Assembly (NCBI GenBank): GCA_017483305.1
Contig: JAFULC010000009.1
Location: 7,337 to 71,336, forward strand
Length of the DNA: 64,000 nt
Direction: 5' to 3'
Source: Clostridia bacterium
GTDB taxonomy: Bacteria; Bacillota; Clostridia; Oscillospirales; CAG-272
Of the stretch, positions 31,234 through 51,673 are shown one piece after another. The notes beneath the pieces are model-generated. The model was given only the letters and a program-made list of their open reading frames with translations, was not told where the DNA came from and did no database searches. Numbering within the stretch: the first letter of the stretch is position 1; every line of letters begins with the position of its first letter. A program made the translations under genes and the position numbers.

Positions 31234-31240
31234 AATAAAA

Positions 31241-31288
31241 ACCTCCCTTTGCTTTTGTGCTTTAATTATAGCACAAGCAAAAGGAGGT
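31241..31288 (-). promoter_or_regulatory. Long imperfect hairpin whose downstream arm contains the vWA gene SD and whose loop contains TATAAT
   Basis: acctccctttgcttttgtgct (31241-31261) pairs with agcacaagcaaaaggaggt (31270-31288). On the minus strand the hairpin is followed by TTTTTATT-ATG. Confidence 0.5.
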
Positions 31289-31310
31289 GTGGTCGCTCGT
31301 CGGGAGACTT

Positions 31311-33289: not shown

Positions 33290-33324
33290 TTCTTTTTCCT
33301 CTCTATCAAATAATAATGCTAAAA

Positions 33325-36300: not shown

Positions 36301-39300
36301 AGATTTCGGGAAGATCGTTTTTGCGAACTCGTTGAATGCAGCAGCAAGGAGCAATCTCATGCCGTCCGTACACTCCATACGGGTCTCAAACTCGACCTTG
36401 AGAATACGTCCGTCGCCGATCTGTCTGGTGTGAGGATGCGGCACGTGGGGATTACCGTCGATACCGTCCTTGTGATAGAAGTCAAGAGTCTGCTTGTCGC
36501 TCGTAAGACCGTAGAAGCCGTACGTCTCGCCGATAAACTTGGCCTGACACTTGGTAACACGGATCTCCTCAAGCATAAGCTTTGTGTTGTGAAGAATACC
36601 GACCTTCTCGAAAGGAACGACCGAATCAACGCTGTATCTACGGAGATGAACGGTATCAAGACAGTTGCGGAGCTTGACGTTTTCGTGTCTGAGACAGATA
36701 ACGCGTCCGTCTGCCGAAATATGCTCGATCTCATACTCAGCGTTGTTATAAAGTATGCTCTGTCCAACGATATATTCAAGATGAACGCGACTCGGGAAGG
36801 AATCGAGCACACCGATGGTCTTATCGTTAAGACGAAGCTCAACGCGATCGTTGCAGTGAAGCAGACGGTCGAGAATCTCATGCATTCTGTTGAATACGAT
36901 GGTCTTCTCCTTCGTCAGCGTGTAGGAATCGACCTTTGCGGGATCGATAACGAGGTAAAAGTCCTTCGCACGATGTCCGATACTCTCTGCGAAGCATCTG
37001 TTCTCCTCCTGCTCGCTGTAATAAATGTCGGTGTCGCAGAGACCTGCAACAAGATATGCGGCAAGCTCACCGAGCTTAAGCTCATTTACAGGCTTACTTG
37101 CAACCAGACGCTTACAGAATACGGAGGAAATAATATCTCCTCTTTCAAGGCTGAAGGTGATGACCTCTCGCATCTTCTTCTCAAAATCCTTGACAAGAAT
37201 ACCGCCGTCGAGATCGAAGCTACAGAAAACGCGCATCAAGGAGAGCTTGTGGCGCTCAATATGCTCGGTAACTCTGGGCTGGATGAACGAAGAACGGTTG
37301 ATAAAGTCCTCCGTAGCCATCTTGGAGATATAGTATTCACGGAGCAAGTAGGGCTTGCTCAGAATGTGAACTATCGACTTTTTCTTTCCACGGAAACGTG
37401 TGCAGGCATAGATCGATGCAGAAAGGTTGCATCTGTGGTCCGAGTAGACCATGTAGTTTACGTCGGCAACGTCGCGGTGGAATTTATTGATCTCAACGTT
37501 GTGGCTTGCGAGTATCTTCTTCTCTGCGTGGTCGAGAGGAGATTCCGTGATAACTCTTACACCGTCAACGTTGTATTTGAAAGCAAGATTTGCGATGATA
37601 AACTCAAGGCTGGTCAGCTTCTGACCGTACTTGCTATAAATTCTGTGGCTCTTACTCTCCTTGTTCCACAGAACGTAGGATACCGACTCGTTTTCCTTTG
37701 CGCTACTGAAGGATAGCACGTGCTCAACGCCAAAGAATTTGGGCAGGCTGCTCGCCGCAAAGCCCTGATAGTAGTCGAGAGTAAGGAATGCGAATCTGAT
37801 ACGTCCCTCGGTAGCCTTAATAAGACTGTTGGAGATAAGCGAGCAGAGGTAGCTGTCGAACGAAATAACGCGGTCAGCATCAACGAATATTGCATCGGAT
37901 ACCTCTTCAAAGAACGCAGGATATCTCGAAACCATAGCTCCGTCGCGGAAATCCTGAGGCGACGCTATAAGTATGTCTGCCTGATCAAGTCTCTCCTCGG
38001 AGGTGTAAACTCGCCAGTTATGCGCCGCGGAGCTACCCGTGAGTCTCATAAGACGCTCGCAGATAAATCTGCGAAGGGTTATTCTCTCCTCGGGGTCCTC
38101 GACTACGAAGATCAAACGCTCGCCCGAAAGCAGACGTATGTACGTATATGCAACCAGATATTCACCCAGCTCGGAATAGAAGGACGCCGCAAAATAGACG
38201 TGCTCGTCGTTAAACATAGCGTCGATGCACTCCATATAGCTCTCTACGGTGTGTCCCGCATAAGAATCCATCTGCTTACGGATGTATTCGAGAGCACTTG
38301 CGTAGGTGCTGCTGGTAGGCTTATACTTGGTTACCTTGTCACGCTTTGCCTCGGGATAGTAGCGCAAAGAGTGCTCGCCGTCAAAGCGTTTTTTGAGCTC
38401 GGAGAGGACCTTGCGAAGACGCGCCTCAAGCTTATTGTCGGCAACGGCCTTCTTTTCCTCCTCCTTCTTCTCTTCCTCCTCTTCCTCAGGCTTCGCGGTA
38501 TTGAAAATATTGCAAAGCTCCTGAAGGAAAATTACCGAGAATACGGGATACAGATACCAATCGCCTATCTTAAATACGTTTATAAGCATATCGTAGAGCA
38601 TCTTCGGCAACGGGAAGAAGACCGAAAGAAGAACTACGCCTATAAAGAACAGATACAGGATCTCAACAAGCACAATAAAGCACTGGAGAACCATTCTCGT
38701 GCGAACTACCCAGCTGCGCGCGTACTGGAACTGGTCTCCCTCAAAGAAGAGACCCAAGAAGAACGAGGATACGGGACCGTAAAGCTTTTCCTCAGGCTCG
38801 TTTTTGTCCTCACCGTCGCCCTCGGTGCCCTCGGGCTTCTCCTCATCCGTCTCCTCCTCGTCATCATCGTCCTCAAGAGTATGAAGGAACATGGCGATTC
38901 GGTTGTTCTTGCGCTTCTTTTTGCTGTCCTCCTCGGAGGGTGTTTCCTCCTCGGTGACCTCGGCTGCCTCTTGATCCTTTTTCTTGTCAAGATGCTTTTT
39001 GGTAAGCTTGAACAAGGGATCGACAACAAGCTTCTTAAGCAATATCTTAAGGAATACGAATGCATAAAGAGCAAGAAGATTTACGATCACAAGCTTGATC
39101 GCGAAAATGATGAAATCCACCTGCGAATTCAAGGAATTGACCGCATTCGTGATCAGCTTACCGACAAACGGTATTCCGCCGATAAACGCCGAAAGCTTAT
39201 TGAAAAGCGAGAAGATTATTGCAAATACAATAAACTCAACGGCAATAAGAATAAGGAAAAATACGTTTTTTCTGTTATGCGGCGTGTGATACTTTACCGA

Positions 39301-39405
39301 CGACGCAAACGAAAGCTTCTTGAGCTTTCCGGGAAGCGGAATGAACGGATATGATAAGATGAGCAGTATGCCGATAGTTAAAATGACCTTTATCGCTGTT
39401 ATCAC
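33325..39405 (-). CDS. Giant (2026 aa) polytopic membrane protein: N-terminal TM region, degenerate SF2-helicase-like core, Cys4 ribbon, acidic/basic disordered region, C-terminal transglutaminase-like Cys-His-Asp domain
   Basis: GTG start is the first possible start after an in-frame stop and overlaps the upstream TGA (GTGA). TM helices in aa 1-330. ILIASPQDF / AIFVDADRV resemble helicase motifs Ib/II, but no Walker A is present. CAFCHKV...YICADCF lies at 35770-35860. VCAGYAAALQYLLQSVGIVCGY...SCHAFNIL...YYIDATWGD gives C1804/H1837/D1852. Confidence 0.85.
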   Translation of the reverse strand: MITAIKVILTIGILLILSYPFIPLPGKLKKLSFASSVKYHTPHNRKNVFFLILIAVEFIVFAIIFSLFNKLSAFIGGIPFVGKLITNAVNSLNSQVDFIIFAIKLVIVNLLALYAFVFLKILLKKLVVDPLFKLTKKHLDKKKDQEAAEVTEEETPSEEDSKKKRKNNRIAMFLHTLEDDDDEEETDEEKPEGTEGDGEDKNEPEEKLYGPVSSFFLGLFFEGDQFQYARSWVVRTRMVLQCFIVLVEILYLFFIGVVLLSVFFPLPKMLYDMLINVFKIGDWYLYPVFSVIFLQELCNIFNTAKPEEEEEEKKEEEKKAVADNKLEARLRKVLSELKKRFDGEHSLRYYPEAKRDKVTKYKPTSSTYASALEYIRKQMDSYAGHTVESYMECIDAMFNDEHVYFAASFYSELGEYLVAYTYIRLLSGERLIFVVEDPEERITLRRFICERLMRLTGSSAAHNWRVYTSEERLDQADILIASPQDFRDGAMVSRYPAFFEEVSDAIFVDADRVISFDSYLCSLISNSLIKATEGRIRFAFLTLDYYQGFAASSLPKFFGVEHVLSFSSAKENESVSYVLWNKESKSHRIYSKYGQKLTSLEFIIANLAFKYNVDGVRVITESPLDHAEKKILASHNVEINKFHRDVADVNYMVYSDHRCNLSASIYACTRFRGKKKSIVHILSKPYLLREYYISKMATEDFINRSSFIQPRVTEHIERHKLSLMRVFCSFDLDGGILVKDFEKKMREVITFSLERGDIISSVFCKRLVASKPVNELKLGELAAYLVAGLCDTDIYYSEQEENRCFAESIGHRAKDFYLVIDPAKVDSYTLTKEKTIVFNRMHEILDRLLHCNDRVELRLNDKTIGVLDSFPSRVHLEYIVGQSILYNNAEYEIEHISADGRVICLRHENVKLRNCLDTVHLRRYSVDSVVPFEKVGILHNTKLMLEEIRVTKCQAKFIGETYGFYGLTSDKQTLDFYHKDGIDGNPHVPHPHTRQIGDGRILKVEFETRMECTDGMRLLLAAAFNEFAKTIFPKSYHCISFCPVLAEPLPFDETVEPETEIEHIKALYPYLKHPGEEFIETDPNRITFFVINDCFEDVGVFDWLYDPSGRYMQEFLANIYSYLHWLKIRPKLEHYIYFGGDQLPECYDLEGCCKLLEGYNLLLSDLGEHDVETAGDDIEDEKPKRCAFCHKVMESGRYSLFDNNRYICADCFETVDDPDKLDDMLAEMREYLKKTYPEISIGVLKSAFDPVGDLKEEQSLSEYYYRLDTTERTVFVERDDPITNVRVSLLRGLIGMWQSDNQLMIDYAAAQLYYEELLYLRSIGKDESADWILEALDVTIKSKLDEIAEYIACNDLDEKKDSGDESTDETPESDENTEEDTNETPKDKDEEKSEDKKDTVNDADRPRRTSFSFLRMKYEELGGGQSDDGEDETDEDYSDGLYDPNKVPRFWKRYLRNQKAEDGREEELPEDEDGDEEEDDVGDGEFSNDLMTDNINAPNETDFDELLGDAEDEISDEDNTVTDDVVDGDQTPEEDDKDTKKKKEKKKFSLRDLFKKKKKDDTVVDEEPVVDDDQVVDDDNKVVEDDKNTDNDVVDGDPALDDDQTSDEDDDSAKKKSQKKDKKKKSSKKLSSLLKKKGTPGERIVPYEEDEKTNPKIRVYNDLVRAAYNYSEEPISRKGITDSELEQVFIYIKGDYPELFWLNSYMYTSETVRHNFRCKNANGVLDVKQINKKRAELRKGAKTFTRGITKKTDPYKALLTIYRRLILTLDYDGIGLDAGLDRDTKQDDKLRSLHSALVEHKVVCAGYAAALQYLLQSVGIVCGYTISRVSNDGGSCHAFNILKIGKYCYYIDATWGDSSNTKSGDRMKDMVWYDYCCTPFEEFIRTPEGQEPLHYPRESLYPTLEKFHNTNHEYFRYHNAYLQSYKEEEIVRILSESALRYNAGEMGDFVVGIRFSTKAQAKYAMETLCKNGNASRLVALARNQLGKKGKNAQKLLERGYGFYVTDAGVLYIAFESPKKNDKRSKK

Positions 39406-41471
39406 CGATCATCACTTCCTTTCTTCGGGAACATAGCCTCGATCGTCTCGATCGAGAATACCCTGTAAACTTTGTTATCCTTGGATCTGATAGGCTTGTT
39501 GACGTCGAACTCGCCCTCAACAGACTCATAAGGATCGAATATAGGCTCAACGTCGAGGTTATTAAGGATACCTGCAATGCGGTCCTTGACCTCGCGAAGC
39601 ATATCTCTGTGTCTCTGTATGTTGCGGTCTATAGCAACGTTAGCATCGTAAAAACGCTTCAACTGACGGATAGCGTATCTCTGACGCTCTATGTTAATAA
39701 GATCGATCTCGTAGCGGTGACGGATCTTGGACATCGAATAGGATTCCTTGCGTCTGCACTTTGCATAGCAAAGATTCATAGCCTCCTTGCACTTTCTCAG
39801 CTTACCGAGTATCGGAGCAAGGCGAATGATCGCCGCCAGAACGTAAAGACCTGCAAAAAGCATCAGCATATTGATCGCCAACAGCCAAACATTGATTCCC
39901 GAGCCGTAGTGAGCAAGCTGAAGCACGGTATAGGGCACGAATACGGCAATCATCGCGAGCAGCATTATGATAAGGTCGCCAAGCATCTTTTTGGGCAGGC
40001 AAGCCTTCGCGTTTACGTATTCGCGGTATATCTTGGTCGCGTTCTTCTTCTCTTCCTCAAAGTCAACGCTGATATAGTCGGCATCAAGAGCATCGGCAAA
40101 CAGATCCGATATCTTCTTCTGCTTGTCAGCAACAAGAGCGTCAAATTCTGCCTTGGAGGGACAGTAGGAGGTCTTTTTCAAAGCACCCTCGTGAATTCTC
40201 TCCTCAAATTCGATCTCCATGTTTCTCTCACGGGTCTCGTCTCTGCTGACAAGATATTTTTCCATTATATCGTCAAAGTCCTTGCGGTGATCCTCTGCAA
40301 CCTGCTCGGGAGTTCTCTCTGCCAGATAGCAGATCTTTTCATAGGTCTGCTCGACCGTGAGATTTTCCTTACCCAAGGAAAGAGGAATAGTATCCTGAGC
40401 GACTGCAGTGCCAAGCACCTCGTCGTAATCAGCTCCGAGATTGTCAGACAGTGCAATATATTTGGAATCGTTCGATTTAGCCACCTCAGATGCGATGCAG
40501 ACCTTGATCCACGCGGTCTCAAGCACTTCTTTAAGACGGTTGGCGTCAAGTCTGGATATCTTGATCTCGCCGTCTCGATCGAAGGACTCTTCTCTTTCAT
40601 ACATACGTATCAGATACAGCGACAAGGACAGAGTATCAAAGGCAAGTCTTGCCTTTCCTCCGCCGTAGCTCGTAACGTAATAGTAGCGTCTGATAGTAGA
40701 GCGAACGCCCATACGGTCGCGCAGCGCCTCAAAAAACTGACCGAGAGTCATCTTTGTCGAGCCGTAGGGATAGTCCTTCAGATAGAAGTTAAGTGACACC
40801 GTCGGGGTGCAATAGAGCGAGAAGGAGCTATACTGTACAAGGTCCTGCACCTCGGGGACAACGAATTCCTCGTCAACCTCATCGTCATAGCGCACGACGG
40901 GAAGATCCTCCGCGCCGTCCTTGGACTTATCCTTCTTTTTGGATTTTTTGTCACCCTCAAGCTCTTCCTTCTGCTTGTTCAGCTCCTCGACCTTAAGGCG
41001 CGCCTCCTCCTCAGAGCCCTCTACAACGTCAAGTCCTCCGAGCACCTGCTTAAGCTGCTCCTCAGCACCCTGAACGAACTCGTAGCGCTCGAGCTTGGAG
41101 TTCTGAACGTAGTAGATCTCAAAATCCTCGGCATAAAGCTCACGAAGCTCGAGATATGCGATCAGATTGTCCATCAGATACGCCTCGATATAGGGCATAT
41201 AAAGGCTGATGTCAACACCGGACTCACCGCCAAATCCAAGTCTGCCGTAAGGAACTCTTACACGGTCAAAGCCGTAAAAGTCGATAAGCACGGCAATTCT
41301 GAATCTGTCTGCGCCAAGAATATTCTGCTTTTCGAATATTTCCTGAGCGCACTGCTTTATCTCAGAAAGCAAACAGTTATGCCAACGGATCTTGTTGTAT
41401 CCGGCAAGGTCGAACAGTCTGTCACTGTCAAACGTTTTGTTCTCGGACGTATTTATTACATACGTTAACAT
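39402..41471 (-). CDS. Hypothetical 689-aa protein with central acidic coiled-coil-like segment and a TM hairpin near residue 500-560
   Basis: ATG with a GGGGA SD. Two hydrophobic helices (LIIMLLAMIAVFVPYTVLQL / VWLLAINMLMLFAGLYVLAAIIRL, nt ~39807-39985). No known motif recognised. Confidence 0.8.
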   Translation of the reverse strand: MLTYVINTSENKTFDSDRLFDLAGYNKIRWHNCLLSEIKQCAQEIFEKQNILGADRFRIAVLIDFYGFDRVRVPYGRLGFGGESGVDISLYMPYIEAYLMDNLIAYLELRELYAEDFEIYYVQNSKLERYEFVQGAEEQLKQVLGGLDVVEGSEEEARLKVEELNKQKEELEGDKKSKKKDKSKDGAEDLPVVRYDDEVDEEFVVPEVQDLVQYSSFSLYCTPTVSLNFYLKDYPYGSTKMTLGQFFEALRDRMGVRSTIRRYYYVTSYGGGKARLAFDTLSLSLYLIRMYEREESFDRDGEIKISRLDANRLKEVLETAWIKVCIASEVAKSNDSKYIALSDNLGADYDEVLGTAVAQDTIPLSLGKENLTVEQTYEKICYLAERTPEQVAEDHRKDFDDIMEKYLVSRDETRERNMEIEFEERIHEGALKKTSYCPSKAEFDALVADKQKKISDLFADALDADYISVDFEEEKKNATKIYREYVNAKACLPKKMLGDLIIMLLAMIAVFVPYTVLQLAHYGSGINVWLLAINMLMLFAGLYVLAAIIRLAPILGKLRKCKEAMNLCYAKCRRKESYSMSKIRHRYEIDLINIERQRYAIRQLKRFYDANVAIDRNIQRHRDMLREVKDRIAGILNNLDVEPIFDPYESVEGEFDVNKPIRSKDNKVYRVFSIETIEAMFPKKGSDDR

Positions 41472-41569: not shown

Positions 41570-44386
41570 TCAAACTGCGGAGGGATCGATGTGCGGAAGC
41601 ATACCTTCCTTCGAAAAGCCTCTCTGCAGATGAGGATCCCACATATCCGTGGATTGCTCCTCCTTAATAACGAGCGTTTTCTTATAAGCCCTGTAATACG
41701 AAGGATCTGCCGAGCATTCGCAGAACGCCTCGAGATAGCAAAGCTTAAGCTGAGTAATATCCCTGAAAACGTAGATCGTATCCTTGGATACCGTACTGCT
41801 GAACGCCGCCTGTCCGTCAGACTCTCCCGCAAGAGCAAGAAGCGATACGATCGCAGCCTCTCCGACTCGTCCGCGGAAAAGCTCGGAATTTTGCTCGATA
41901 TACTCACGTATCTCCTCGGAAACGAGCGATACCGTGCGATGCTTGATAGCTCTTATCGCCTTGTAGGAATCATAAGCATCTGGAACCTGATACAGAAGCG
42001 CGGGGGTCTTCGCCAAGAACGCCTTGTTGAGAGCGCACGAGCTATCCTTCTGAGTCAGAATGACCTCAAGAACGTTTCTGTCAAGCTCCTTTGCATAAAA
42101 TCCGCTATCGTGACACTCAAACGCAATTCTGTCCGCCAAAGCGTTGGTCAGACAGACTGCGACACCGTCGCTACCCAGATTTCTGAGCGTAAGCTCGCCG
42201 AGCAGAGCATCTTGCTGTCGAATATAGTCGACCTTTTTGTCGCTATCCTTTATAAATTCAGCAAATTTATCGAAGAAAGCGAGCTTCTCTTCCTCGGAGG
42301 TCCCCACGTAATAGGTCAAGCCTCTGTCCCCGATACATCTGCGAAGCGCCGTGGTAACGTCCGACTCAAGCTCTCCAAAGCCAACTGAAAGCGATGCAAA
42401 TACCTTGTGATACGCCATAATAACGTCGCCAAGCACATCAAGGAATGCTTCTCCGCGCAGAAGTCTGAAGATATCGCGAAGATGCTCGTAAGAGCTTCCG
42501 AGATCGTATATAAACATACGTCTATCGTTGATCGAGCCCTTAACCATTCCGCCCTGACCGCCTGTCAGAGCCAAAAATCTTCCCGAACCGTATTTTTTCG
42601 AAGCATATTTGCAATCGAGCGCGACGTTCTGGTTTGCTTTCATTATCCACTGTGGGAACTCGTTTTCCGTGATCGGATCGCTCTGATTTATAAGTCTCAG
42701 CGGAGCGATCTCGCCATCGATCTCCCGATAAAGTGTGCAGAGACGGACAAGCGCGAAAACGGGATTGATAAACGCTCCGTCATCCTTCAAAAGCTTATCG
42801 ACAAGTGAGATTCCGCACTCCTCCGAGCCGTCCGCGTCAAGCTTTGCACGTATTCTGTCTCGGAATTTAGCCTCTCCCTCGATAACGCGCTTAAATCCGA
42901 CTGCATAAACGTCCTGAAGCCACTCGGCGCAGTTTATTGCGGTCTCCTCGAGTCTTACTCGCTCCTCGGCATTCGCCTTGACCAGCCTTCTCTTCTTCTC
43001 GTCCGCCAATTGCTCAAGCTCCTCGGATTCCTCAAGCACAGCCTGAATATTCATCGCGCTTTCACTGTAAAATTCTCTGTCGATCTCGTCAAGAAGCTCG
43101 CCGACAAGCTTTTTGGGCAGGCGATCTATCGGAGCGGTATCATCTTCGGCGTTCTCAAAGACACGACCAAGCAACGCGCTATCGCTTTCGCCGTCCTCAA
43201 CCACCGTCGATGCGGCGGTAAGAATAGCATCGACGTAAGCGTCCGCCTTTCTGTCAAATTCCTTGCCCTCGTCAAAGCAATTCTGACGTTTTCTTGCCAA
43301 TTCCTTAAGCACCTTTTCGTGAAGATACGAAAGCTCACCGCTCTCCTTCTCAAAGGCGTTTCGGATGGCGATATATGATACGATGCTGTCTGTGGCATAT
43401 ATAGTCCTACATAGAGTCATACCGCCGTAGATCGCATCGGTCGTATTCAAATTTTGGTTATTTTGGTTGGAGGTCTCGGTGCTCTGAAGCTTACCCGTAG
43501 CGCAAAGCGTGATAATTGAATCTGCAAGCATCTCGGTATAGAGCGCAAGCTGTCTGACACCGGGCATACGGCGCACAAGATAGACCCTTCCAAACGGTTT
43601 CTTTTCATTTTTATTATACTCGGGAACAGAAGAATCGAAAAGCAAGCCAAGATACGGGTCGTCGTTTGATCCGATCCTGATAGGCTCATCCGAAGCCTTA
43701 TCTCCCGAAAGATTGATTGCCTGAAGCTCGCGAAGTGAAGCATACGCATTAGCTTTCGCCTTGACGCGTTGCTCGGGAGTCATAAGATCCTCGCAAACCT
43801 CGGGGAGAGTCAGTATAGCGGTCGACGTATCAACGACAGCACCCTTCTCCTCCAGATATTTTTTTACGTACATTACGACGGGCATAAACAATCCCGATCC
43901 GGTGCCTCCCGCCAAGGAAGCAACCGTGTATATTTCGACGTGAGTCGGCTCAACCTCAACGTTTTCGTCGGACTCCTCTCCGTCGCTCTCTTTGGCAACC
44001 AGAGCATCAAGGTTAGAGTGCAGCATCTCTGCGTTCTTCTCTTTTGAAAGGAAAGAGGTAAACGATAAAAGCGCCTTCATTCTCCACTGATTCGAGCCCT
44101 CGTTCATCGCGAGACCTTCAAAATACTCTACGCCGTCACTGTTACGGTCACAAGGAAACCACTCCTTCAAAATCTCGGGATCGAGAGTGTCGAGCACACG
44201 TCCGAGATTGGAGGCTTCAACCATAGGAATGATCACCGCATCGGAAATCTCTTCTAAGGTTCTTTCATCAGTATCAATAGCCAAAGCGTGTACAGCTTGC
44301 CCCTCTTTGCCCATTTTGCGCGCAAAAAGATCTGCAACCGCACATCCCATCTGACCTAATCCAAGCAAAAGAATTTGCTTTCCCAT
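41570..44386 (-). CDS. Tubulin/FtsZ-superfamily protein, 938 aa (tubulin/TubZ-type T1 loop)
   Basis: N-terminus ILLLGLGQMGCAVADLF (G-Q-x-G as in tubulin/TubZ/BtubAB). Exact tubulin signature AGGTGSG at aa 159-165 (nt ~43892-43912). Paralogous to the upstream gene (EWFPCD, QWRxK, DMWxPHL). Confidence 0.8.
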   Translation of the reverse strand: MGKQILLLGLGQMGCAVADLFARKMGKEGQAVHALAIDTDERTLEEISDAVIIPMVEASNLGRVLDTLDPEILKEWFPCDRNSDGVEYFEGLAMNEGSNQWRMKALLSFTSFLSKEKNAEMLHSNLDALVAKESDGEESDENVEVEPTHVEIYTVASLAGGTGSGLFMPVVMYVKKYLEEKGAVVDTSTAILTLPEVCEDLMTPEQRVKAKANAYASLRELQAINLSGDKASDEPIRIGSNDDPYLGLLFDSSVPEYNKNEKKPFGRVYLVRRMPGVRQLALYTEMLADSIITLCATGKLQSTETSNQNNQNLNTTDAIYGGMTLCRTIYATDSIVSYIAIRNAFEKESGELSYLHEKVLKELARKRQNCFDEGKEFDRKADAYVDAILTAASTVVEDGESDSALLGRVFENAEDDTAPIDRLPKKLVGELLDEIDREFYSESAMNIQAVLEESEELEQLADEKKRRLVKANAEERVRLEETAINCAEWLQDVYAVGFKRVIEGEAKFRDRIRAKLDADGSEECGISLVDKLLKDDGAFINPVFALVRLCTLYREIDGEIAPLRLINQSDPITENEFPQWIMKANQNVALDCKYASKKYGSGRFLALTGGQGGMVKGSINDRRMFIYDLGSSYEHLRDIFRLLRGEAFLDVLGDVIMAYHKVFASLSVGFGELESDVTTALRRCIGDRGLTYYVGTSEEEKLAFFDKFAEFIKDSDKKVDYIRQQDALLGELTLRNLGSDGVAVCLTNALADRIAFECHDSGFYAKELDRNVLEVILTQKDSSCALNKAFLAKTPALLYQVPDAYDSYKAIRAIKHRTVSLVSEEIREYIEQNSELFRGRVGEAAIVSLLALAGESDGQAAFSSTVSKDTIYVFRDITQLKLCYLEAFCECSADPSYYRAYKKTLVIKEEQSTDMWDPHLQRGFSKEGMLPHIDPSAV

Positions 44387-44509
44387 GAAGATTTCTCCCT
44401 TCGTTTCCCTGTTTTTTCCCCGCCTCGCCCCCGAGAATAAGGATCCTCGGGAAGCGAAGCGTTTTTGCTATGAGGCGAAAGCCTCACGGCTTATGTAGTG
44501 TTGTGGCAA

Positions 44510-47500
44510 TTATGCCTTAGCATCCTCAGCGGGTGCGGATGCTATCTTCTTGGAGCGATTCTTTATAGCATTAAGAACGCTCTTGACCTTAGAGGAAGGT
44601 CTGTTGTAATCGAATACGGAATTGATAAGCACCTTACCGGTTTCATCCATGGGCATATCATCCGAAATAGTATAGAATACGTCTGCTGCCTGGAGCCAGT
44701 TAACAAGCTGAGTAAAGTGAGCTGCACACTCGTTGCCTGCTCTGCAAACGATCTCTGCGCCTGCGAAGGACTCGTATACCTTGCTGAGCTGCTGCTTGTA
44801 AACCTGAATGAAGCGCTCGGGTGTAGTCTCGGGGCTGGTGCGGTGAGAGATCATCTCCTTGAAGGTCTTGTAAAGAACTCTAAGGATTCTCTCTGCATCG
44901 TCACAGTCTCTGCCAAGCTCTTCGCTTGTCTTGATCATGTAAGCAAACTCAAGTGCGGTAGGACCTACGCGATCGTTCCACTCACCGTCAGCGGTGGGTC
45001 TCTGCTCTGTCTTTCTCGAGGAATCAGCGTAGAGGCTCTCGGTCAGGATTCTGATGATAGGCGAGTTGGTAAGAGTCGCCTCAAGATTTCTGACCTCACC
45101 CTCGTTGTCGCTTGCAAGGCTGGGAAGCGCATTCTTCTGACGGAGGACGTCAGCATCAAAGCGTGCACTCCACTTTTCAACCAGCTCATCCTCGTTACGC
45201 ATCCAAGCGAGAAGCTGAGCGATGTTCTTGTTGTTGATCCACTTTCCTTCAGGATCGGTGATCTTAGTACCGTTGCAGGAGAAGTAGTAGCGTCCGCGAG
45301 CCTCACCCATACCGTCGGTATAACGGATAGTGCCGCTCTGGAAGCCGTAGATAAGAGCCTTAACCATCTTTTCATCGCAAGCCTGCTCCATCTTTGCGTT
45401 CATGTAAGGCAGGCAGCCACGCTTGTTGAGGTTGTTGCCGAGGTGGGGGTTCCACATATCGGTCTCATATCTCTTATATCTTGCAAGAGCCTCGGTGTAG
45501 TTCTTGAAGTATACACAGTCCTCGCCAAGCTCGTTGAACTTCGCAATGCGGAGAGGAGTAATATCCATAACCTCACCGGTGCAATAGAGAACCTGATCGG
45601 GGATAGAATCAACGATAGCAACTCTTGCAGAGCTGTTACCCGAGAAGTCGCGGATGAACGCCTCTGCGCAAGCCTTGAGCATAGCGCCCTCGCTGTTCTG
45701 ATCGTTAGGAATGCTCAGACCGAACTTTTCAGCATTTCTCTTAATGTATCTTGCAGTGTTCTTGGACATCATGAATACCATAATGTGAGAAGGAACTACG
45801 AGATCGTCCTCAACAGATGCAACGTCGAGTCTGAGAGAAGGAATAGCAAGATCCTGAGCTACGGAGAAGGATACGCGAAGCGCGTCGTCGATCTCCTTGG
45901 AGGAAGCGCCGTCACCGCAAGAGGTAACGATAGCTTCAACTACGTTGTAGGAAGCAATATTGCCAAAGAGCTCACTCTTAGCGATAGAGGTGCGGTAAGC
46001 CGCGATCATGCTGGAGAAGAGCGAACGGTAAGCGCTGGAGTCCTTATCGTTGAAGCCTGTATCCTCAGAGCGCTCTGCAACTGCGGATGCGAATACGGAA
46101 GCGAATACGCCTCTACCAACGATATCGTCGGTATCAGCAACAGCCTCGCTGGTAACAGGTCCGTTACCCTCTTCAAGAGTAAGTCTGATGCTTTCCTTGT
46201 TCTTCTGCGAGCAATATACGTTGATGATACTGTCGATAGCATCCTCGTCCTTACGGAGAGCATCCTTCGTAAGATCCTCAAGCATTTCCTTTTCCTTCTC
46301 AAAGCGATTGAAGAAGTTACGGTACTTAGCGATAAGAAGGTCGACGTCAGCTGCAATGCGGGAGTATACCTGGAAGGAAACGAGCTCATAAGCCTCGTTA
46401 GCAACGTTGTTCGCGATCTGCTGAACGTCGTTGTGAAGCGCTTCCATATCTGCCGTTGCATTGGTTCTCTTGGAGTTGTACTCCTCAGGCTCTACGTCAG
46501 CATCGGAGATCTCTGCGAAACGGGTCTTTCCAAGTCCGAGATATGCGCTCTTGGTGCGTCCGCCCTTGTCATCAAGAGTAAGGAAGCCCTCAGGAAGCGC
46601 GGGAGCCTTGCGGAGCTTGAGCTCAGGCCAATCGTTAGGCTCTACGGAAAGCTTTTCGCTAAGAGCGATTCTGAACTGGCACAAACGGATCATAGCCGCA
46701 ACGGGATGTACCATCTTGCCGTTCTTGGTCTCGAGAAGGTTCTTAACAACCGAATACTTATCGCCGATAACGCCGATCTTCTTCTTTTCAAGAGTGATGA
46801 TAGCGTCTGCGGTGCTGGTAGGAATGCTCTTAACAGTATCGAAGCATCTGCGGTAGAACTTGTCGAGAATAGGACGGGAGTCTACAGCCGCGCTGATTAC
46901 GTTGGACTTGTCGAAAGTACCGCCGGAAAGATCTCTGGGGAATATGCCCTCAAGCTCTGCATCGATAGATGCCGCAACGGGAACCTTGCTGGAAATATAG
47001 CCTTCAATTGTCTCAAGGAAGAGCTCGCCGATAGTTTCGGAGCGGCGCTCGCCCTTTTCGTTGTACTGGTCAACACCGCGCTCAACGAGAGAGATGACCT
47101 CGTCGCAGTTTTCATCCTGCTTCTCCTCAACCTTCTCGATAAGCATTCTTGCATAAGCGTCGTTCTCCATAATGAAGGTACGCTTCATTGCCTTTGCTTC
47201 TCTGCCCTTTTCGGCGATAGCATTTTCAACTGCCTGGTGAATGATCAGCCATTCGCCGTTGCAGGAATCGTATGTCTTCTTGCATGCGAGATACTCAAGA
47301 ACCGAATCCTTGGGGAAGCGGATCTGCGAGGTAGAAATACCGGCGTAGATAGCGTTGCTACCGTTGTTCTGCGAACGAACGAGCTCGTGGTTGGAGAATT
47401 CGCTGTCGAAGGCAGCGCCGATCTCGGTACAAATAATGGTATAAAGCGAGTTAGCAAGCACCATGTCGTGTGCTGCAACAGAGTTCAGACCGGGGATACG

Positions 47501-48301
47501 GTCAAGCAGGAATACCTGCGAGAAGGGTGCAGCCTCAGGAGTCCAGAAGCGCTTGTCGGAAGCATCAAAGAGTACGCCTACGTTAGGCTCATCGGGGCTA
47601 CCGATACGGAAGCGGATGGGAGCCTTCTTCTTAGCCGCGAGACCTGCGTTGTAGTTGCGGGAAACGAGGTTGATAGCGTTAAGCTCACGAAGGATTGCAT
47701 ACGCGTTGGAATAAACCTTGATACGGTTTTCGGGAGTCTGGGAGTCTGCATAGATGTCAGGAAGAGCGATCATAGCGTTAACTATGGGGTCCTTACCGAG
47801 AGCCTTGCGGATGTAGCGCTTAGCATAGAGCGCGATCGGGATAAACGAGCCCGAGCCTGTACCGCCCGCAACGGATGCGATAACGTAAACCTCGCAGGAA
47901 GCACCGGGATCCTGAACCATATCCTCAAGCGCGCTGATGAATACGGAACGCTCAGCGGACTTGTTCATCAGGTTGAGGAATGCGAGATAGGACTTCTTAC
48001 GCCACTGGGATGCACCGCGGACCATCTCCTGAGAACGAACTGCCTGTACGTCGCAGGGGAACCACTCTCTGAGATGCTCTTTGCCAAGTCGGTCACAAAT
48101 GGTACCAACGCTTGCGGTATCGGACATCGCAACCGTCTTTGCAGCGGTGATTCTCTTCAAATCGCCGGCATCGGTATCGAATACAAGTGCCGTAACCTTG
48201 TTGTCGGTCTGATTTCCAAGCTCGTGATACTTTTTAAAGAAAGTATCAACCGCGTTACTACCGGTTCCGCCAACACCGATCAAAAGAATGTTCTTTTTCA
48301 T
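44510..48301 (-). CDS. Tubulin/FtsZ-superfamily protein, 1263 aa (FtsZ-type T1 loop)
   Basis: AAGGAGA SD. N-terminus ILLIGVGGTGSNAVD (compare FtsZ GVGGGGxNAV). Exact tubulin signature AGGTGSG at aa 145-151 (nt ~47849-47869). The antisense 1272-aa ORF is a shadow. Confidence 0.85.
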   Translation of the reverse strand: MKKNILLIGVGGTGSNAVDTFFKKYHELGNQTDNKVTALVFDTDAGDLKRITAAKTVAMSDTASVGTICDRLGKEHLREWFPCDVQAVRSQEMVRGASQWRKKSYLAFLNLMNKSAERSVFISALEDMVQDPGASCEVYVIASVAGGTGSGSFIPIALYAKRYIRKALGKDPIVNAMIALPDIYADSQTPENRIKVYSNAYAILRELNAINLVSRNYNAGLAAKKKAPIRFRIGSPDEPNVGVLFDASDKRFWTPEAAPFSQVFLLDRIPGLNSVAAHDMVLANSLYTIICTEIGAAFDSEFSNHELVRSQNNGSNAIYAGISTSQIRFPKDSVLEYLACKKTYDSCNGEWLIIHQAVENAIAEKGREAKAMKRTFIMENDAYARMLIEKVEEKQDENCDEVISLVERGVDQYNEKGERRSETIGELFLETIEGYISSKVPVAASIDAELEGIFPRDLSGGTFDKSNVISAAVDSRPILDKFYRRCFDTVKSIPTSTADAIITLEKKKIGVIGDKYSVVKNLLETKNGKMVHPVAAMIRLCQFRIALSEKLSVEPNDWPELKLRKAPALPEGFLTLDDKGGRTKSAYLGLGKTRFAEISDADVEPEEYNSKRTNATADMEALHNDVQQIANNVANEAYELVSFQVYSRIAADVDLLIAKYRNFFNRFEKEKEMLEDLTKDALRKDEDAIDSIINVYCSQKNKESIRLTLEEGNGPVTSEAVADTDDIVGRGVFASVFASAVAERSEDTGFNDKDSSAYRSLFSSMIAAYRTSIAKSELFGNIASYNVVEAIVTSCGDGASSKEIDDALRVSFSVAQDLAIPSLRLDVASVEDDLVVPSHIMVFMMSKNTARYIKRNAEKFGLSIPNDQNSEGAMLKACAEAFIRDFSGNSSARVAIVDSIPDQVLYCTGEVMDITPLRIAKFNELGEDCVYFKNYTEALARYKRYETDMWNPHLGNNLNKRGCLPYMNAKMEQACDEKMVKALIYGFQSGTIRYTDGMGEARGRYYFSCNGTKITDPEGKWINNKNIAQLLAWMRNEDELVEKWSARFDADVLRQKNALPSLASDNEGEVRNLEATLTNSPIIRILTESLYADSSRKTEQRPTADGEWNDRVGPTALEFAYMIKTSEELGRDCDDAERILRVLYKTFKEMISHRTSPETTPERFIQVYKQQLSKVYESFAGAEIVCRAGNECAAHFTQLVNWLQAADVFYTISDDMPMDETGKVLINSVFDYNRPSSKVKSVLNAIKNRSKKIASAPAEDAKA

Positions 48302-48381
48302 AATTTTTCTCCTTAAAAATTATATCAAAAATTTTAATTTCATTAATTTATATAGACCTTGAATGTATTTTCACATTCCGA

Positions 48382-51300
48382 TCAACGAAAACGTCTCTTG
48401 CGACGTACAAATGTTATCGCATATTGCAATACTACGCGATCGTCGAGATTCTTTGCAAATCCGCCGTACCAATCGCCTATGCAATTACAGTTGGAATCCT
48501 TGTTGATTACGTTGTTCTTCTTCATAAAGACCTTCTTTATTTCGGGAAGCTTGGTCGTGCTCTTGGTGAGTCGGATTCCCTTTGAAACGTCATTTATGAT
48601 AGAATCAATGCTCTTCTTCTGAGCAGCGTTGAGATTGAGTGCCCAGCAAGCGTTGACCTTAGTAACTCTGAGACCGAAATCAATGTTGCCGTTCTGAGAC
48701 TTGCAATGCTGGATCTTGTGAGCCGAGAAGGATCTCGCCTCATTTCCCCTCTTTCTCTTGAGAGGCTGAACGCTCCAGATCTTCCAGATAAGAAGTCTGG
48801 TCAAATGCCAGCCGATAACTCTGAGCCAGGAGTTGTTGATCTCAACCGTATTCACACGGCAGGAGCCCATTCCGTCATCCTTAATAATAACGAACGTACC
48901 GTTGGGCAGAAGCGCCGTTTTTCTGAAGCCGATAATATAAATAATAATGTAGATAATGAATCCGATTATCAGAAGTATTACGAGAATACGGATCAGATAC
49001 TCAAACAGCGAGCTGTTTGTGATCACGAAATCCGCAGTGGTGTCCACATCCGAATAGGATACCGTAACTCCCTTCTCGCTTCCAAAGAGAAGCATCGATG
49101 TGAACCACGCGGGCAGATCCTTCATATCCTTGACTGCTCGTATCGCGATTACCGCCTCTCCGTTGAGCTCCTCAACCGAGATCTCAACTCCTACGGGGAT
49201 CAGTCCAAAGGTGAATGCTCCGGGGAGGTTTATTCCGATCATTCCCTTGTCGTAGGAGTCCTGCAGCTCTTCAAGGGTAAACACCCTTCCGTCTCTGAGG
49301 ACCTTGAAGTAGAGCGCCGCCTGCGTTTTGCCAATATTGAATCGGTCAATACTGCGGCTTCCGTAAGTGACTGCCTCAACCGTGTAAGCGGTCTTAATTA
49401 TAGTCAGCTTTGCGGTAGTTGAGGTGTTGAGCGAGGTCATCTCGGGATATTCAACCGTAAGCACCACGTCGTGATCGCCTACCGAATTGATTATACTGAG
49501 CAGACTGTCCTCGGTCGGTATGTATGTAAGAGCCCCCTCGTTCACCGTCGTATACTCGGTGACGTCAACTCCTCCAACGGTCAGCTTATATGTAACCAAA
49601 CCGCTATCAAACGGGAAAGGCTTTCCCTCTGCCGAAAGATCGAAGATGAATGGCTCGGTGTTGTGCTTCAGATCGTACTGCGTGATCGACAGGTGATCCG
49701 ATCCGCTCACGCCGACCGTCATAGATGCAGGAGCAACCGTGACAGTATATTCAGCGCTACGCGTCGTTCTGTACTCTGACGTGATCGAGAAGCTTATGTT
49801 GTATTTACCGAAAGCTCCGCTGTTCTCGCTGATCGAGGCAACGATCTTACCGTCGCTTTGGACCGTAACGGGAATATTTATCTCACGTCCGTCGGGCGTG
49901 AACATCGTTGCGGAGTAGGTGTAGGTAGCAAGATCGGCAACGGTTGCGGGGTGGTTATCAATAAATACCGTGTAGGTCACGTCTCCGGAGAAGCCCGACG
50001 AGGTAACCGTCTCGTTATGGTCACACTCAACTCGGTAGTAGCTCGGATTCTGCTCAACCGTGCAAAATTCACTTGATACCAGGCTGTAAGCGCCGTCCAT
50101 AACACTGACAGCGATCCTTATTTCGTGCGTACCGGCAACCAAGGGGATCTTGTCTCCGATTTTATATACGTTACCGCCGTACGTAACACTCTCCTCTGCT
50201 TTTCCGAATATCGAGGTAAGATCAATGGGGTCGCCGCTTGCTTGCTCATACACCTCGTATCCCACACGGATCTGATCGCCGGGAGTGAGATTTTCATTGA
50301 TATACTGTATATCAACTCTTATCCAATCAGAGCCATCCTGGTACTCCATATAAGGAACTATTCTCAAAGCAGGCTCTGCAAAAATTGAAAGCATATTCGC
50401 ATCAACATTTCCTGAATACGTCAGTTCAATAGTGCCCTCGTAGAAATAGTCGTTTCCGTCAAGCAACGCCGAGTGCGCACTCTTAAGTCCATCAATGCCT
50501 TTGGGCTCAATTACGCATCCGTTCGTTATAGTAACGGACTGGTCCTGATAGATTGCCGACGTCATCGTCGCTCCGCAGTTCTGAGCTATGACCGAAACAG
50601 ACGACAGCGCAAATCCGAGGTTATCAAGATTTATCGTAACCCTGTTTCCGTTTACCGTATAATCGGCATCCTTCTTCAGTGTGTAGCGTCCTGACATCTT
50701 GTTGGAAATCTCCTGCATTACACTGACAAGAGTATCCTGATCGGCGTTATATGCGTCAAAGTGTAAGCCGCTATTATCAAGATCACTGCCCTTAAGATTT
50801 ACCGTAGGATTGTCAAGTGAAAGAAATATGGTATTGAGCGAGGGGTAGTCACTCACCGCAGCGCTGATAGAGGGCTCTGCTCCTCCATCGATATCACCGT
50901 CGGTCATTACGATCAGCCAATATTCCTTGTTATCCTCGGCCTCGTACAGATGATCTGCATCCTTAAGTCCGCGGTTGATCAATTCACTGACCGCCAGACC
51001 TATCGGCTCAGACGGAGTTCCTCCGTTTTCGGTAAAAATACCCGAAGTGTTAACGACTCTGTTGATCTCTGCCTCACGGTCGGGGGCGGCAAGGTTGACC
51101 TCAACTCCGTACCCCGGCACCGTAATTACGTTACCGTTCAGGTCGTTCATAGGTGTTATCACCAAAGTATCTCTCTCGTCGAACATCGCCATCAGCATTC
51201 TCATTGAGTAGGTGGCAAGCTCTCCTCGATTTCCGTAGGACATCGATCCCGAGTTGTCATACACAACAGAAACGATCTTCTGCGTGTACCTGACCTCGCT

Positions 51301-51399
51301 CGAATCAGTGTCCACAGCAAACGAGGTAAACACCGTCATGGTGGATAACAAGATGACGAACGCGCATAACAACGCCGTCATCCTCACGGTTCGTTTCAT
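48382..51399 (-). CDS. Surface vWA/MIDAS protein with Ig-like repeats, single C-terminal TM anchor and ~180-aa cytoplasmic tail
   Basis: Strong SD (AAGGAGG). Signal peptide MKRTVRMTALLCAFVILLSTMTVFTSFA. MIDAS motif VVYDNSGSMS (nt ~51241-51267) ... NGGTPS ... VMTDGD. TM helix LIRILVILLIIGFIIYIIIYIIG (nt ~48928-48999). Confidence 0.8.
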   Translation of the reverse strand: MKRTVRMTALLCAFVILLSTMTVFTSFAVDTDSSEVRYTQKIVSVVYDNSGSMSYGNRGELATYSMRMLMAMFDERDTLVITPMNDLNGNVITVPGYGVEVNLAAPDREAEINRVVNTSGIFTENGGTPSEPIGLAVSELINRGLKDADHLYEAEDNKEYWLIVMTDGDIDGGAEPSISAAVSDYPSLNTIFLSLDNPTVNLKGSDLDNSGLHFDAYNADQDTLVSVMQEISNKMSGRYTLKKDADYTVNGNRVTINLDNLGFALSSVSVIAQNCGATMTSAIYQDQSVTITNGCVIEPKGIDGLKSAHSALLDGNDYFYEGTIELTYSGNVDANMLSIFAEPALRIVPYMEYQDGSDWIRVDIQYINENLTPGDQIRVGYEVYEQASGDPIDLTSIFGKAEESVTYGGNVYKIGDKIPLVAGTHEIRIAVSVMDGAYSLVSSEFCTVEQNPSYYRVECDHNETVTSSGFSGDVTYTVFIDNHPATVADLATYTYSATMFTPDGREINIPVTVQSDGKIVASISENSGAFGKYNISFSITSEYRTTRSAEYTVTVAPASMTVGVSGSDHLSITQYDLKHNTEPFIFDLSAEGKPFPFDSGLVTYKLTVGGVDVTEYTTVNEGALTYIPTEDSLLSIINSVGDHDVVLTVEYPEMTSLNTSTTAKLTIIKTAYTVEAVTYGSRSIDRFNIGKTQAALYFKVLRDGRVFTLEELQDSYDKGMIGINLPGAFTFGLIPVGVEISVEELNGEAVIAIRAVKDMKDLPAWFTSMLLFGSEKGVTVSYSDVDTTADFVITNSSLFEYLIRILVILLIIGFIIYIIIYIIGFRKTALLPNGTFVIIKDDGMGSCRVNTVEINNSWLRVIGWHLTRLLIWKIWSVQPLKRKRGNEARSFSAHKIQHCKSQNGNIDFGLRVTKVNACWALNLNAAQKKSIDSIINDVSKGIRLTKSTTKLPEIKKVFMKKNNVINKDSNCNCIGDWYGGFAKNLDDRVVLQYAITFVRRKRRFR

Positions 51400-51453
51400 C
51401 GTAACCTCCTTAAAAAAGTGAATAATTCGACATTATAGATTATAATTATATAA

Positions 51454-51482
51454 ATTATATACCCTTTTTTTTCACAAGTCAA
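51454..51482 (-). promoter_or_regulatory. Consensus SigA-type promoter of the vWA/tubulin-like operon
   Basis: Minus strand: TTGACT (51482-51477) - 17 nt - TATAAT (51459-51454), about 55 nt upstream of ATG 51399. Confidence 0.6.
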
Positions 51483-51624: not shown

Positions 51625-51664
51625 ATAATAAAAAAACTCGGCACTGCAAAGGCGCAGCACCGAG
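51625..51664 (-). terminator. Intrinsic terminator after the SDR gene (insulates the operon promoter)
   Basis: Minus strand: CTCGGTGCTGC-gcctttg-GCAGTGCCGAG (two G-U pairs) followed by TTTTTTTATTATTTTT. Confidence 0.55.
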
Positions 51665-51673
51665 CCACAATAT

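Follow-up and report, generated by a model that had tools for sequence, protein, structure and literature searches.

Within the tubulin/FtsZ superfamily, no branch is more divergent than that of the FtsZl1 (Tubulin_2) proteins. The subject of this work is g1, a gene for a membrane protein with a vWA (von Willebrand factor type A) domain, which lies directly upstream of two FtsZl1 genes (g2 and g3) and three further genes (g4 to g6) in a 64,000-nucleotide stretch of DNA, hereafter the window, from a Clostridia bacterium (GenBank assembly GCA_017483305.1, contig JAFULC010000009.1, positions 7,337 to 71,336). The coordinates of all features are collected in Table 1.

FtsZl1 was defined by Makarova and Koonin (2010; PMC2875224), who reported a vWA gene in most FtsZl1 operons. 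The vWA proteins of these operons often carry a signal peptide or a transmembrane (TM) segment together with an intact metal ion-dependent adhesion site (MIDAS), and membrane remodelling was proposed as the role of vWA/FtsZl1 operons (PMC2875224). The gene order vWA - FtsZl1 - B5 - B12 is listed in Additional file 5 of that study for Ruminococcus lactaris ATCC 29176 (RUMLAC_01526-01529) and for Bacteroides (Pseudoflavonifractor) capillosus ATCC 29799 (BACCAP_04121-04124), and the vWA/FtsZl1 pair alone is given in its table for B. pseudomycoides. Kaur, Burroughs, Iyer, and Aravind (2020; PMC7159879) subsequently assigned tubulin-containing neighbourhoods to the GAP1-N2 DO-GTPase conflict systems; firmicute versions pair two tubulin genes with a TM-anchored vWA protein whose vWA domain is extracellular. 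No experimental work on FtsZl1/Tubulin_2 or vWA-FtsZl1 systems was found in the literature searched.

In the window, the two genes directly downstream of the vWA gene match PF13809, which places the locus among the vWA/FtsZl1 operons. It shares with the operons described in 2010 the order vWA, FtsZl1 (Tubulin_2), a protein of ~660-690 aa (g4) and a very large membrane protein (g5), the latter combining a Zn finger and a peptidase-like domain in both cases. Judged from the published table, the likeness of g4 and g5 to B5 and B12 covers size, order, membrane association, and Zn ribbon. Nevertheless, several differences were found. Whereas the R. lactaris/B. capillosus type has one FtsZl1, the window operon has two paralogues; the vWA protein has 1005 aa, compared with 732-861 aa; the tail of g1 belongs to a different sequence family from the tails of one-tubulin systems; and g5 comprises 2026 aa with a transglutaminase-like core, in contrast to the ~1420 aa and the zincin noted in 2010. 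A search of the operon for the zincin motif HExxH returned nothing. The core vWA-FtsZl1 association has thus been in print since 2010 and is not new here; what is new is that a pair of tubulin genes occurs together with a tail domain of a separate kind and a giant partner of transglutaminase-like type.

The theme of the firmicute systems described by Kaur and coworkers, two tubulin-domain genes accompanied by a TM-anchored extracellular vWA protein, is also present in the window. However, their DO-GTPase, GAP1, YtkA-fused vWA, and separate FNIII-repeat protein were not detected in g1-g6, and their vWA protein has several TM helices, as opposed to the single TM helix and signal peptide of g1. 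Pfam and NCBIfam scans of the operon proteins revealed no P-loop GTPase family. The motif [AG]xxxxGK[ST] is absent from g1 and from g3-g6, and its lone match in g2 falls outside any recognised GTPase domain. Neither g4 nor g5 matched a GAP1 family in Pfam, in a library whose content of GAP1 models is unconfirmed. Since neither a DO-GTPase nor a GAP1 protein is recognisable, the operon does not show the defining features of that class.

From the evidence presented below, we judge the chances to be about even that g1 serves a vWA-FtsZl1 system as its membrane-spanning subunit, either as receptor or as anchor. The locus is a compact, well-defined, and widely conserved version of the FtsZl1 operon in gut Clostridia, with clear topology, and it allows the vague predictions of "membrane remodelling" or "conflict system" to be turned into specific, experimentally addressable questions on FtsZl1 operons.

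Linkage of the g1 family to FtsZl1 genes

The g1 family comprises 64 clusters at 90% identity, none of them informatively named. A genome scan returned 116 relatives, and taxonomy and origin were taken from the 80 that were listed. All 80 belong to Clostridia assemblies, nearly all of them metagenome-assembled genomes from gut, rumen, and faecal samples, and they are distributed among Oscillospiraceae, Christensenellaceae, Acutalibacteraceae, Lachnospiraceae, Anaerovoracaceae, and other families. The identity of the next gene was established by open reading frame (ORF) and BLAST analysis for the 58 vWA genes from the scan that have 1 kb or more of DNA downstream. This next gene was tubulin-like in 55 of them, usually after a gap of 100 nt or less. 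In the remaining three, the next gene was a tandem vWA paralogue (loci L040 and L045) or the vWA gene itself was truncated (L048). Another truncated copy, in L084, has less than 1 kb of downstream DNA and lies outside the count. A tubulin-like gene was also directly next in all five loci fetched through vWA homologues. The linkage of the g1 family to FtsZl1 genes is therefore near-obligate.

The association extends beyond the listed Clostridia assemblies. In Bacillus sp. N5-665 (L092; NZ_CP093325.1), a gene for a 730-aa protein with signal peptide, vWA domain, TM helix, and a 118-aa tail is directly followed by a Tubulin_2 gene (1123 aa, E = 5e-81) and then by an unrelated amino-acid permease gene. 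A 9794-bp record (L093; MT836542.1) contains a 739-aa gene, a 732-aa gene of the same signal peptide-vWA-TM type with a 137-aa tail, and the start of a tubulin-like gene (LLVGLGGTGSK), in sizes and order equal to those of RUMLAC_01530, 01529, and 01528 of R. lactaris in the table of Makarova and Koonin. Thus, the co-conservation with the downstream genes on which the sequence-only reading had made its proposal depend was observed in 55 of the 58 vWA genes, in Bacillus, and in the scaffold with the R. lactaris order. These two records were also the only partial hits for mobility through plasmids or phages, and neither counts as such: the Bacillus record, labelled 'plasmid p1', has 5.5 Mb and 25 annotated features and is most likely a chromosome, and MT836542.1, labelled 'UNVERIFIED: Bacteriophage sp.', is probably a bacterial chromosomal fragment.

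Two types of locus can be distinguished. In the two-tubulin type, to which the window belongs (L004-L052), the nine loci that were read completely or almost completely all have the same order of five genes: a vWA-TM-tail protein (~1000-1600 aa), two Tubulin_2 proteins (~1260-1310 and ~940-1170 aa), a protein of 640-870 aa, and a protein of 1950-2230 aa. In the one-tubulin type (L053-L091), the vWA protein has ~810-1016 aa, mostly 870-900, and the tubulin ~1120-1230 aa. The vWA proteins of both types have a signal peptide, a DxSxS motif near residue 40-110, and a single TM helix. Their tails measure 155-192 aa, except in one locus where an extra hydrophobic peak led to a value of 124 aa. The N-terminal motif of g4 is shared with the gene that follows the single tubulin gene in one-tubulin loci (hhalign probability 86.5%, E = 5e-6), which argues that the two types are versions of one system. 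g2 is strongly similar across the scanned loci, with BLAST E-values down to 0.

The tandem vWA paralogues occupy positions 49-5679 of L040 and 2-8632 of L045, both from Christensenellaceae; the second copy, cut by the contig end, is at least 883 aa long in L040 and 1868 aa or more in L045. This arrangement suggests duplication and diversification of the surface component.

Predicted architecture of g1

g1 is confidently predicted to be a type I membrane protein with the vWA domain outside and the tail inside. Its hydropathy profile contains just two hydrophobic segments, at residues ~7-29 and ~801-826, the second of which runs into FRK. The first bears out the cleavable-looking signal peptide claimed previously (Table 1), and a hydrophobic N-terminal segment was found in nearly all g1 homologues. 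The net charge is +23 over the C-terminal 181 residues and -61 over the 772-residue middle part; by the positive-inside rule, this would place the middle part on the extracytoplasmic side and the tail in the cytoplasm, irrespective of whether the signal peptide is cleaved. An AlphaFold2 (AF2) model, built on 60 homologues with a mean predicted local distance difference test score (pLDDT) of 86, consists of disorder at residues 21-35, a beta/alpha domain (40-236), five beta-sandwiches (247-795), a 30-residue helix (798-827), and a compact alpha/beta domain (834-999). Hydropathy, charge, and the order of the modelled domains are all consistent with the outward-facing vWA domain proposed in the sequence-only reading, and the signal peptide, the single TM helix, and a stalk resembling those of adhesins and S-layer proteins agree with it.

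The complete MIDAS recognised in the earlier reading is strictly conserved: D48, S50, S52 (DNSGS = residues 48-52), T128, and D167 are invariant in the alignment of 60 sequences, as are K41, V43, V45, P129, and G168. A DxSxS motif was present at residue ~41-114 in every one of the 64 clusters but the N-terminally truncated P0037. Residues 40-236 show a Rossmann-like alternation of beta strands and alpha helices in the AF2 model, with a pLDDT of ~90. Among eight homologue N-termini tried, five matched the Pfam families VWA_2/VWA at E < 0.03. The N-terminus of P0049, a protein matching g1 with E = 3e-152, scored 28.7 and 26.7 bits against VWA_2 and VWA, above the gathering cut-offs, and sub-threshold matches were obtained with the N-termini of P0058, P0064, and four more homologues. 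Since g1 itself has no Pfam match and P0049 passes, membership of the vWA family is assigned by transitivity. On the grounds of motif, predicted fold order, and transitivity, we accept the head of g1 as a divergent vWA domain. Its mean pairwise identity is 43%, and together with the first two immunoglobulin (Ig)-like domains (43-44%) it forms the best-conserved extracellular part of the protein.

A Foldseek search of the PDB with the full g1 model placed tandem Ig-like arrays of surface proteins on top, with E-values down to 5e-12, including the S-layer proteins Sap, EA1, and SbsB, the Ig-like domains of PrgB, an RTX adhesin, and cadherins. Extra insertions occur inside the third stalk domain of g1 homologues. 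The sequence-only reading had described ~600 aa of Ig-like repeats. Five beta-sandwiches were indeed predicted, over ~550 aa, but no sequence similarity was detectable when the five domains were compared with each other, so that "repeats" holds in a structural sense only. The PHIKZ128 structure, the single PDB match in sequence searches (E = 0.046, in the stalk region), was treated as noise. Neither an LPxTG-like sortase signal (motif search) nor a recognised wall-binding module (Pfam scan) was found in g1. The single TM helix, previously assigned to nt 48928-48999, was placed here at 48919-49008. It is the best-conserved segment of g1 (47% mean pairwise identity), and its residue R804 is at least 90% conserved.

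The part of g1 beyond the TM helix is firmly predicted to be a folded, family-restricted domain without earlier description. In agreement with the ~180-aa tail reported before, it comprises 178-181 aa and carries the net charge of +23. Modelled alone (AF2, 36 sequences), it reached a pLDDT of 85 and a predicted template modelling score (pTM) of 0.80, with nine strands and three main helices, one of which, around residue 954, is short. Foldseek searches with this model gave no credible match in the PDB (best E = 0.62, TM-score at most 0.31) or in BFVD (best E = 0.028, TM-score 0.19), no Pfam family was matched, and BLAST with the g1 tail returned nothing at 1e-4, close loci included. A profile of the tail, searched with HMMER against 1.84 billion representative proteins (E <= 0.001), matched 103 proteins, most of them of ~900-2300 aa, with short ones that look like fragments. 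The matches sit at or next to the C-terminus, with the exception of a 5830-aa protein matched in short internal stretches only.

Conservation within the tail is uneven. The membrane-proximal part is conserved most (K-C-K-x-L-P-x-G, N855, W864-H865, R868, and QP), whereas conservation reaches its lowest level within g1 in the distal tail, with 16% mean pairwise identity compared with 43% for the vWA domain. The Cys/Trp-containing character noted in the sequence-only reading is correct for g1, which has 5 Cys and 6 Trp in its tail, but the counts range from 0 to 7 in homologues, and Cys/Trp content is therefore no conserved feature of the tail. The profile of two-tubulin tails recovered no one-tubulin tail with hmmsearch, and the hhalign probability between both groups was 0.2%. 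The tails of the two types are equal in length and their vWA heads are homologous. The combination of unrelated tails and homologous heads suggests that the tail family tracks the cytoplasmic machinery.

Candidate functions of g1

g1 is strongly predicted to be exported by a Sec-type signal peptide, exposing a metal-dependent (MIDAS) vWA head at the tip of a five-domain Ig-like stalk beyond the cytoplasmic membrane, with the conserved TM helix and the 178-aa folded basic domain linking this ectodomain to the cytoplasm. g1 is likewise predicted to be co-transcribed with two FtsZl1 GTPases, a 2-TM protein, a giant peptidase-like membrane protein, and a CvpA-like protein. The vWA head may bind a conserved extracellular ligand, for example a peptide or a wall or matrix component, and the TM helix and tail may couple this event to the membrane-proximal assembly of g2 and g3, probably as a heteromer, together with g4 and g5. 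The output could be a remodelling of the envelope or membrane, or it could be an immune or conflict response. Such an "outside-in coupler", as the sequence-only reading named it, fits the predicted topology and the synteny. Apart from the tail, g1 has no sizeable portion in the cytoplasm, and TM segments are absent from the FtsZl1 proteins; if g1 and FtsZl1 touch directly, they must therefore do so through the tail or through the TM helix at its inner end. A direct partnership is favoured because no g4- or g5-like genes lie downstream of the vWA-tubulin pair of Bacillus. If the coupling is real, g1 would provide a prokaryotic analogue of the integrin-cytoskeleton linkage; if it is not, the locus still adds a well-annotated case to a gene neighbourhood that had been catalogued before.

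Several observations weigh against this reading. The vWA domain of g1 escapes direct recognition: Pfam is silent on the full protein and, even at E <= 10, on the isolated N-terminus, and NCBIfam, phmmer against the PDB, and the 60-sequence profile against the PDB did not recognise it either. The Foldseek list obtained with the full model was filled by Ig arrays, so that no superposition on a solved vWA structure was obtained. Furthermore, g4 and g5 are conserved to an equal degree, sit in the membrane, and are for the most part cytoplasmic, which makes them equally plausible partners of the tail, and the fast evolution of the distal tail would be unexpected for an interface with the strongly similar g2.

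These last points lead to the alternative that the tail couples to g4 and/or g5, g1 being the extracellular arm of a g1-g4-g5 complex on which FtsZl1 docks through g4 or g5. This is possible, although we hold it to be somewhat unlikely. g4 and g5 have large cytoplasmic parts and were present in all nine fully read two-tubulin loci, and the strong conservation of the TM helix and of R804 suggests helix-helix contacts in the membrane. On the other hand, a permease gene and no g4- or g5-sized gene follows the pair in Bacillus sp. N5-665, where the downstream side was examined, and the table entry for B. pseudomycoides has the pair only (PMC2875224); both point to a direct vWA-FtsZl1 partnership.

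The locus could also encode a conflict or immune system, in which the surface vWA domain would sense a phage or competitor surface, FtsZl1 would act as a nucleotide-dependent threshold or assembly switch, and peptidase or TIR proteins would be the effectors. Firmicute neighbourhoods with two tubulins and an extracellular vWA protein have been placed among NTP-dependent conflict systems (PMC7159879), TIR or TIR-LRR genes beside the cassette in seven loci keep such a role open, and the Cys-His-Asp triad of g5 is conserved in all five sequences compared. The flanks of the cassette also differ between genomes, but this is expected between different species anyway. However, when the nine proteins g1-g9 were searched against PADLOC-DB 2.0, no defence family reached E <= 0.01, verified records of phages or plasmids yielded no match, and, as described above, DO-GTPase and GAP1 were not found and g1 and g3-g6 have no Walker A motif. 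Moreover, the putative sensor head is part of the best-conserved extracellular region rather than being hypervariable, which favours a conserved ligand over an arms-race target. We therefore regard this alternative as unlikely.

Coupling might instead run from inside to outside, or be purely structural, with FtsZl1 polymers positioning, clustering, or tensioning g1 as a surface adhesin or wall-binding protein and no signal passing inward. The resemblance of the ectodomain to adhesins and S-layer proteins is consistent with this idea, a conserved head would suit a housekeeping ligand, the cell's own wall for instance, and the reading agrees with the membrane-remodelling proposal (PMC2875224). 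Nevertheless, g1 has neither a sortase motif nor a recognised wall-binding module, and the sequence data do not distinguish the direction of coupling. This explanation, too, seems improbable to us.

Extracellular MIDAS-containing vWA domains carried on Ig-like domains are characteristic of Gram-positive pilus tip adhesins such as RrgA, GBS104, and SpaC. g1 shares this architecture and the Gram-positive envelope, but differs in the absence of LPxTG, in its TM anchor followed by a 178-aa folded domain in place of a short basic tail, and in an operon without pilin or sortase genes; g1 is thus not a sortase-anchored adhesin. Despite the adhesin-like architecture, it is highly improbable that g1 is an independent surface adhesin located by chance upstream of tubulin-like genes, since this is contradicted by the synteny, with short gaps, in 55 of 58 loci across several Clostridia families and in Bacillus, and by a tail domain confined to the g1 family.

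In integrins, a MIDAS-containing head of vWA fold is combined with beta-sandwich legs, a TM helix that crosses the membrane once, and a cytoplasmic tail linked to the cytoskeleton. As a functional analogy only, g1 shares the MIDAS head, the beta-sandwich legs, and the single TM helix, and its tail has a genetic link to proteins of cytoskeletal type. In contrast, no homology to integrins is detectable beyond the vWA fold; g1 is a single chain and not an alpha/beta heterodimer; its tail is a folded domain; it is associated with tubulin-superfamily GTPases instead of actin adaptors; and it is known from sequence alone. A specific form of the receptor reading, decidedly doubtful in our view, is that of an integrin-like receptor in which ligand binding at the MIDAS would be transmitted through the TM helix and the new-fold tail so as to control how a heteromeric FtsZl1 polymer assembles at the membrane, and the polymer would then activate the g5 peptidase and, in some genomes, TIR effectors. 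If true, this would represent an uncharacterised class of trans-envelope signalling, in which a sensor on the surface acts directly on a prokaryotic cytoskeleton of the tubulin superfamily.

Operon, partner proteins, and variable flanks

Table 1. Positions of g1, its predicted domains, the associated expression signals, and the other operon genes in the window.
Feature	Position (nt)	Strand	Basis or remark
g1, vWA membrane protein gene, 1005 aa	48382..51399	(-)	ORF call exact
Signal peptide of g1, aa 1-28	51316..51399	(-)	MKRTVR n-region, hydrophobic core, SFA↓VD site
Divergent vWA domain of g1 with complete MIDAS, aa 36-240	50680..51294	(-)	Invariant residues, AF2 fold
Stalk of g1, five Ig-like beta-sandwich domains, aa 247-795 (~550 aa)	49015..50661	(-)	AF2, Foldseek
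Single TM helix of g1, aa 798-827	48919..49008	(-)	Hydropathy and AF2
Predicted cytoplasmic alpha/beta domain of g1, basic, aa 828-1005 (178 aa)	48385..48918	(-)	AF2
Intrinsic terminator of upstream short-chain dehydrogenase (SDR) gene	51635..51666	(-)	14-bp stem, 7 G-C pairs, then T-run
Promoter-like site TTGACT-17-TATAAT, 11/12 consensus matches	51454..51482	(-)	Consensus match only
Ribosome-binding site AAGGAGG, 7 nt 5' of ATG at 51399	51405..51411	(-)	Sequence read
g2, FtsZl1/Tubulin_2, 1263 aa, AGGTGSG at residue 145	44510..48301	(-)	PF13809, E = 3.6e-35
g3, second FtsZl1/Tubulin_2, 938 aa, AGGTGSG at residue 159	41570..44386	(-)	PF13809, E = 1.7e-26
g4, 689 aa, 2-TM hairpin at ~aa 499-549	39402..41471	(-)	Hydropathy
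g5, polytopic membrane protein, 2026 aa, start overlapping the end of g4 by 4 nt	33325..39405	(-)	
g6, CvpA-like polytopic membrane protein, 244 aa	32555..33289	(-)	Weak Pfam Colicin_V match

g1 is confidently predicted to open an operon, g1-g6, and to be co-transcribed with the other five genes. The gene upstream of g1 encodes an SDR protein and ends in a strong hairpin followed by a T-run, a terminator that is predicted to isolate the operon from upstream transcription. Between this terminator and g1 lies the top-scoring promoter-like site of a 20-kb scan, followed by a strong ribosome-binding site, and the earlier description of g1 as the first gene of its operon agrees well with this arrangement. 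The intergenic gaps are short (80 nt for g1-g2, 123 nt for g2-g3, 98 nt for g3-g4, and 35 nt for g5-g6, with the 4-nt overlap of g4 and g5), and a terminator scan from after g1 through g5 found no same-strand terminator of comparable strength. Downstream of g6, a further promoter-like site (32483-32455) precedes a Macro-domain gene. The signals at both ends and the short gaps are most simply explained by an operon extending from g1 to g6 (33-51 kb), with g6 probably as its last gene; a g6 homologue, 50% identical, also directly follows g5 in locus L011.

The two FtsZl1 proteins are paralogues with 29% identity, both keeping the tubulin signature and neither having a TM segment. A Walker-A-like sequence, AYLGLGKT, at residues 586-593 of g2 lies in a C-terminal extension outside the tubulin domain and is probably incidental. 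g4, which has no significant Pfam match, carries a hairpin flanked by basic residues on both sides, and both of its large parts are predicted to be cytoplasmic. g5 is predicted to have four or more TM helices in its N-terminal part and ~1700 aa on the cytoplasmic side. It contains a conserved Zn ribbon (CxxC...CxxC, ~aa 1186-1211) and a transglutaminase-like core (~aa 1743-1865), in which the Cys (VCAGYA), His (HAFN), and Asp (D-x-TWGD) residues are conserved in five of five sequences. Both are separated by an acidic, lysine-rich low-complexity region (aa ~1340-1640), and the identity of g5 to its homologues drops to 18% at aa 1501-1600. The best-conserved part of the protein, aa 401-700 (~62% identity), contains no recognised domain.

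The sequence-only reading had also pointed to a second, cytoplasmic vWA gene 17 kb away, at 30580-31233. This 217-aa ORF indeed has a MIDAS-like motif (DRSGS...GCT...TTDG) and neither signal peptide nor TM segment, with a sub-threshold match to Pfam VWA (E = 0.023), but it is not a conserved component of the system. No homologue of it was found downstream of the cassette in L008-L011, hhalign aligned it with g1 over the DxSGSM motif only (3% probability), and a promoter-like site lies between both genes; its candidacy as a partner or paralogue of g1 was consequently dropped. The gene belongs to a group of three on the minus strand (29801-32351), together with a Macro-domain gene (O-acetyl-ADP-ribose deacetylase-like, 346 aa) and an ADP-ribosylglycohydrolase gene (DraG/Tri1-like), and to judge by their sequences the three may form a module for ADP-ribose processing. 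Elsewhere it is not conserved beside the cassette, and its presence next to the window operon is notable given the TIR (NADase-type) neighbours of the cassette in other genomes.

TIR or TIR_2+LRR proteins of ~550-800 aa flank the cassette, upstream or downstream, in L005 (6337-9617), L007 (6030-7688), L009 (19789-21438), L020, L023, L025, and L026; none was found in the window. A recurrent accessory protein of 585-704 aa was identified next to the cassette in both types of system, in 12 loci altogether: L006 (7633-9726), L007 (7743-9800), L009 (17951-19771), L010 (18292-20049), L015, L019, L025, L026, L032, L052, L057, and L086. The members read have about four N-terminal TM helices, a Rossmann-like GxGxxG motif, and a conserved C-terminal EHxRWNAY...SEGY motif. 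According to tblastn, this protein is absent from the window.

Finally, two long stop-free ORFs were observed on the plus strand, antisense to operon genes: 44498-48316 (1272 aa) mirrors g2, and 33283-37716 (1477 aa) mirrors part of g5. Antisense ORFs of such length are unusual at ~50% G+C. Since the family matches belong to the minus-strand genes, they are presumably artefacts of composition.

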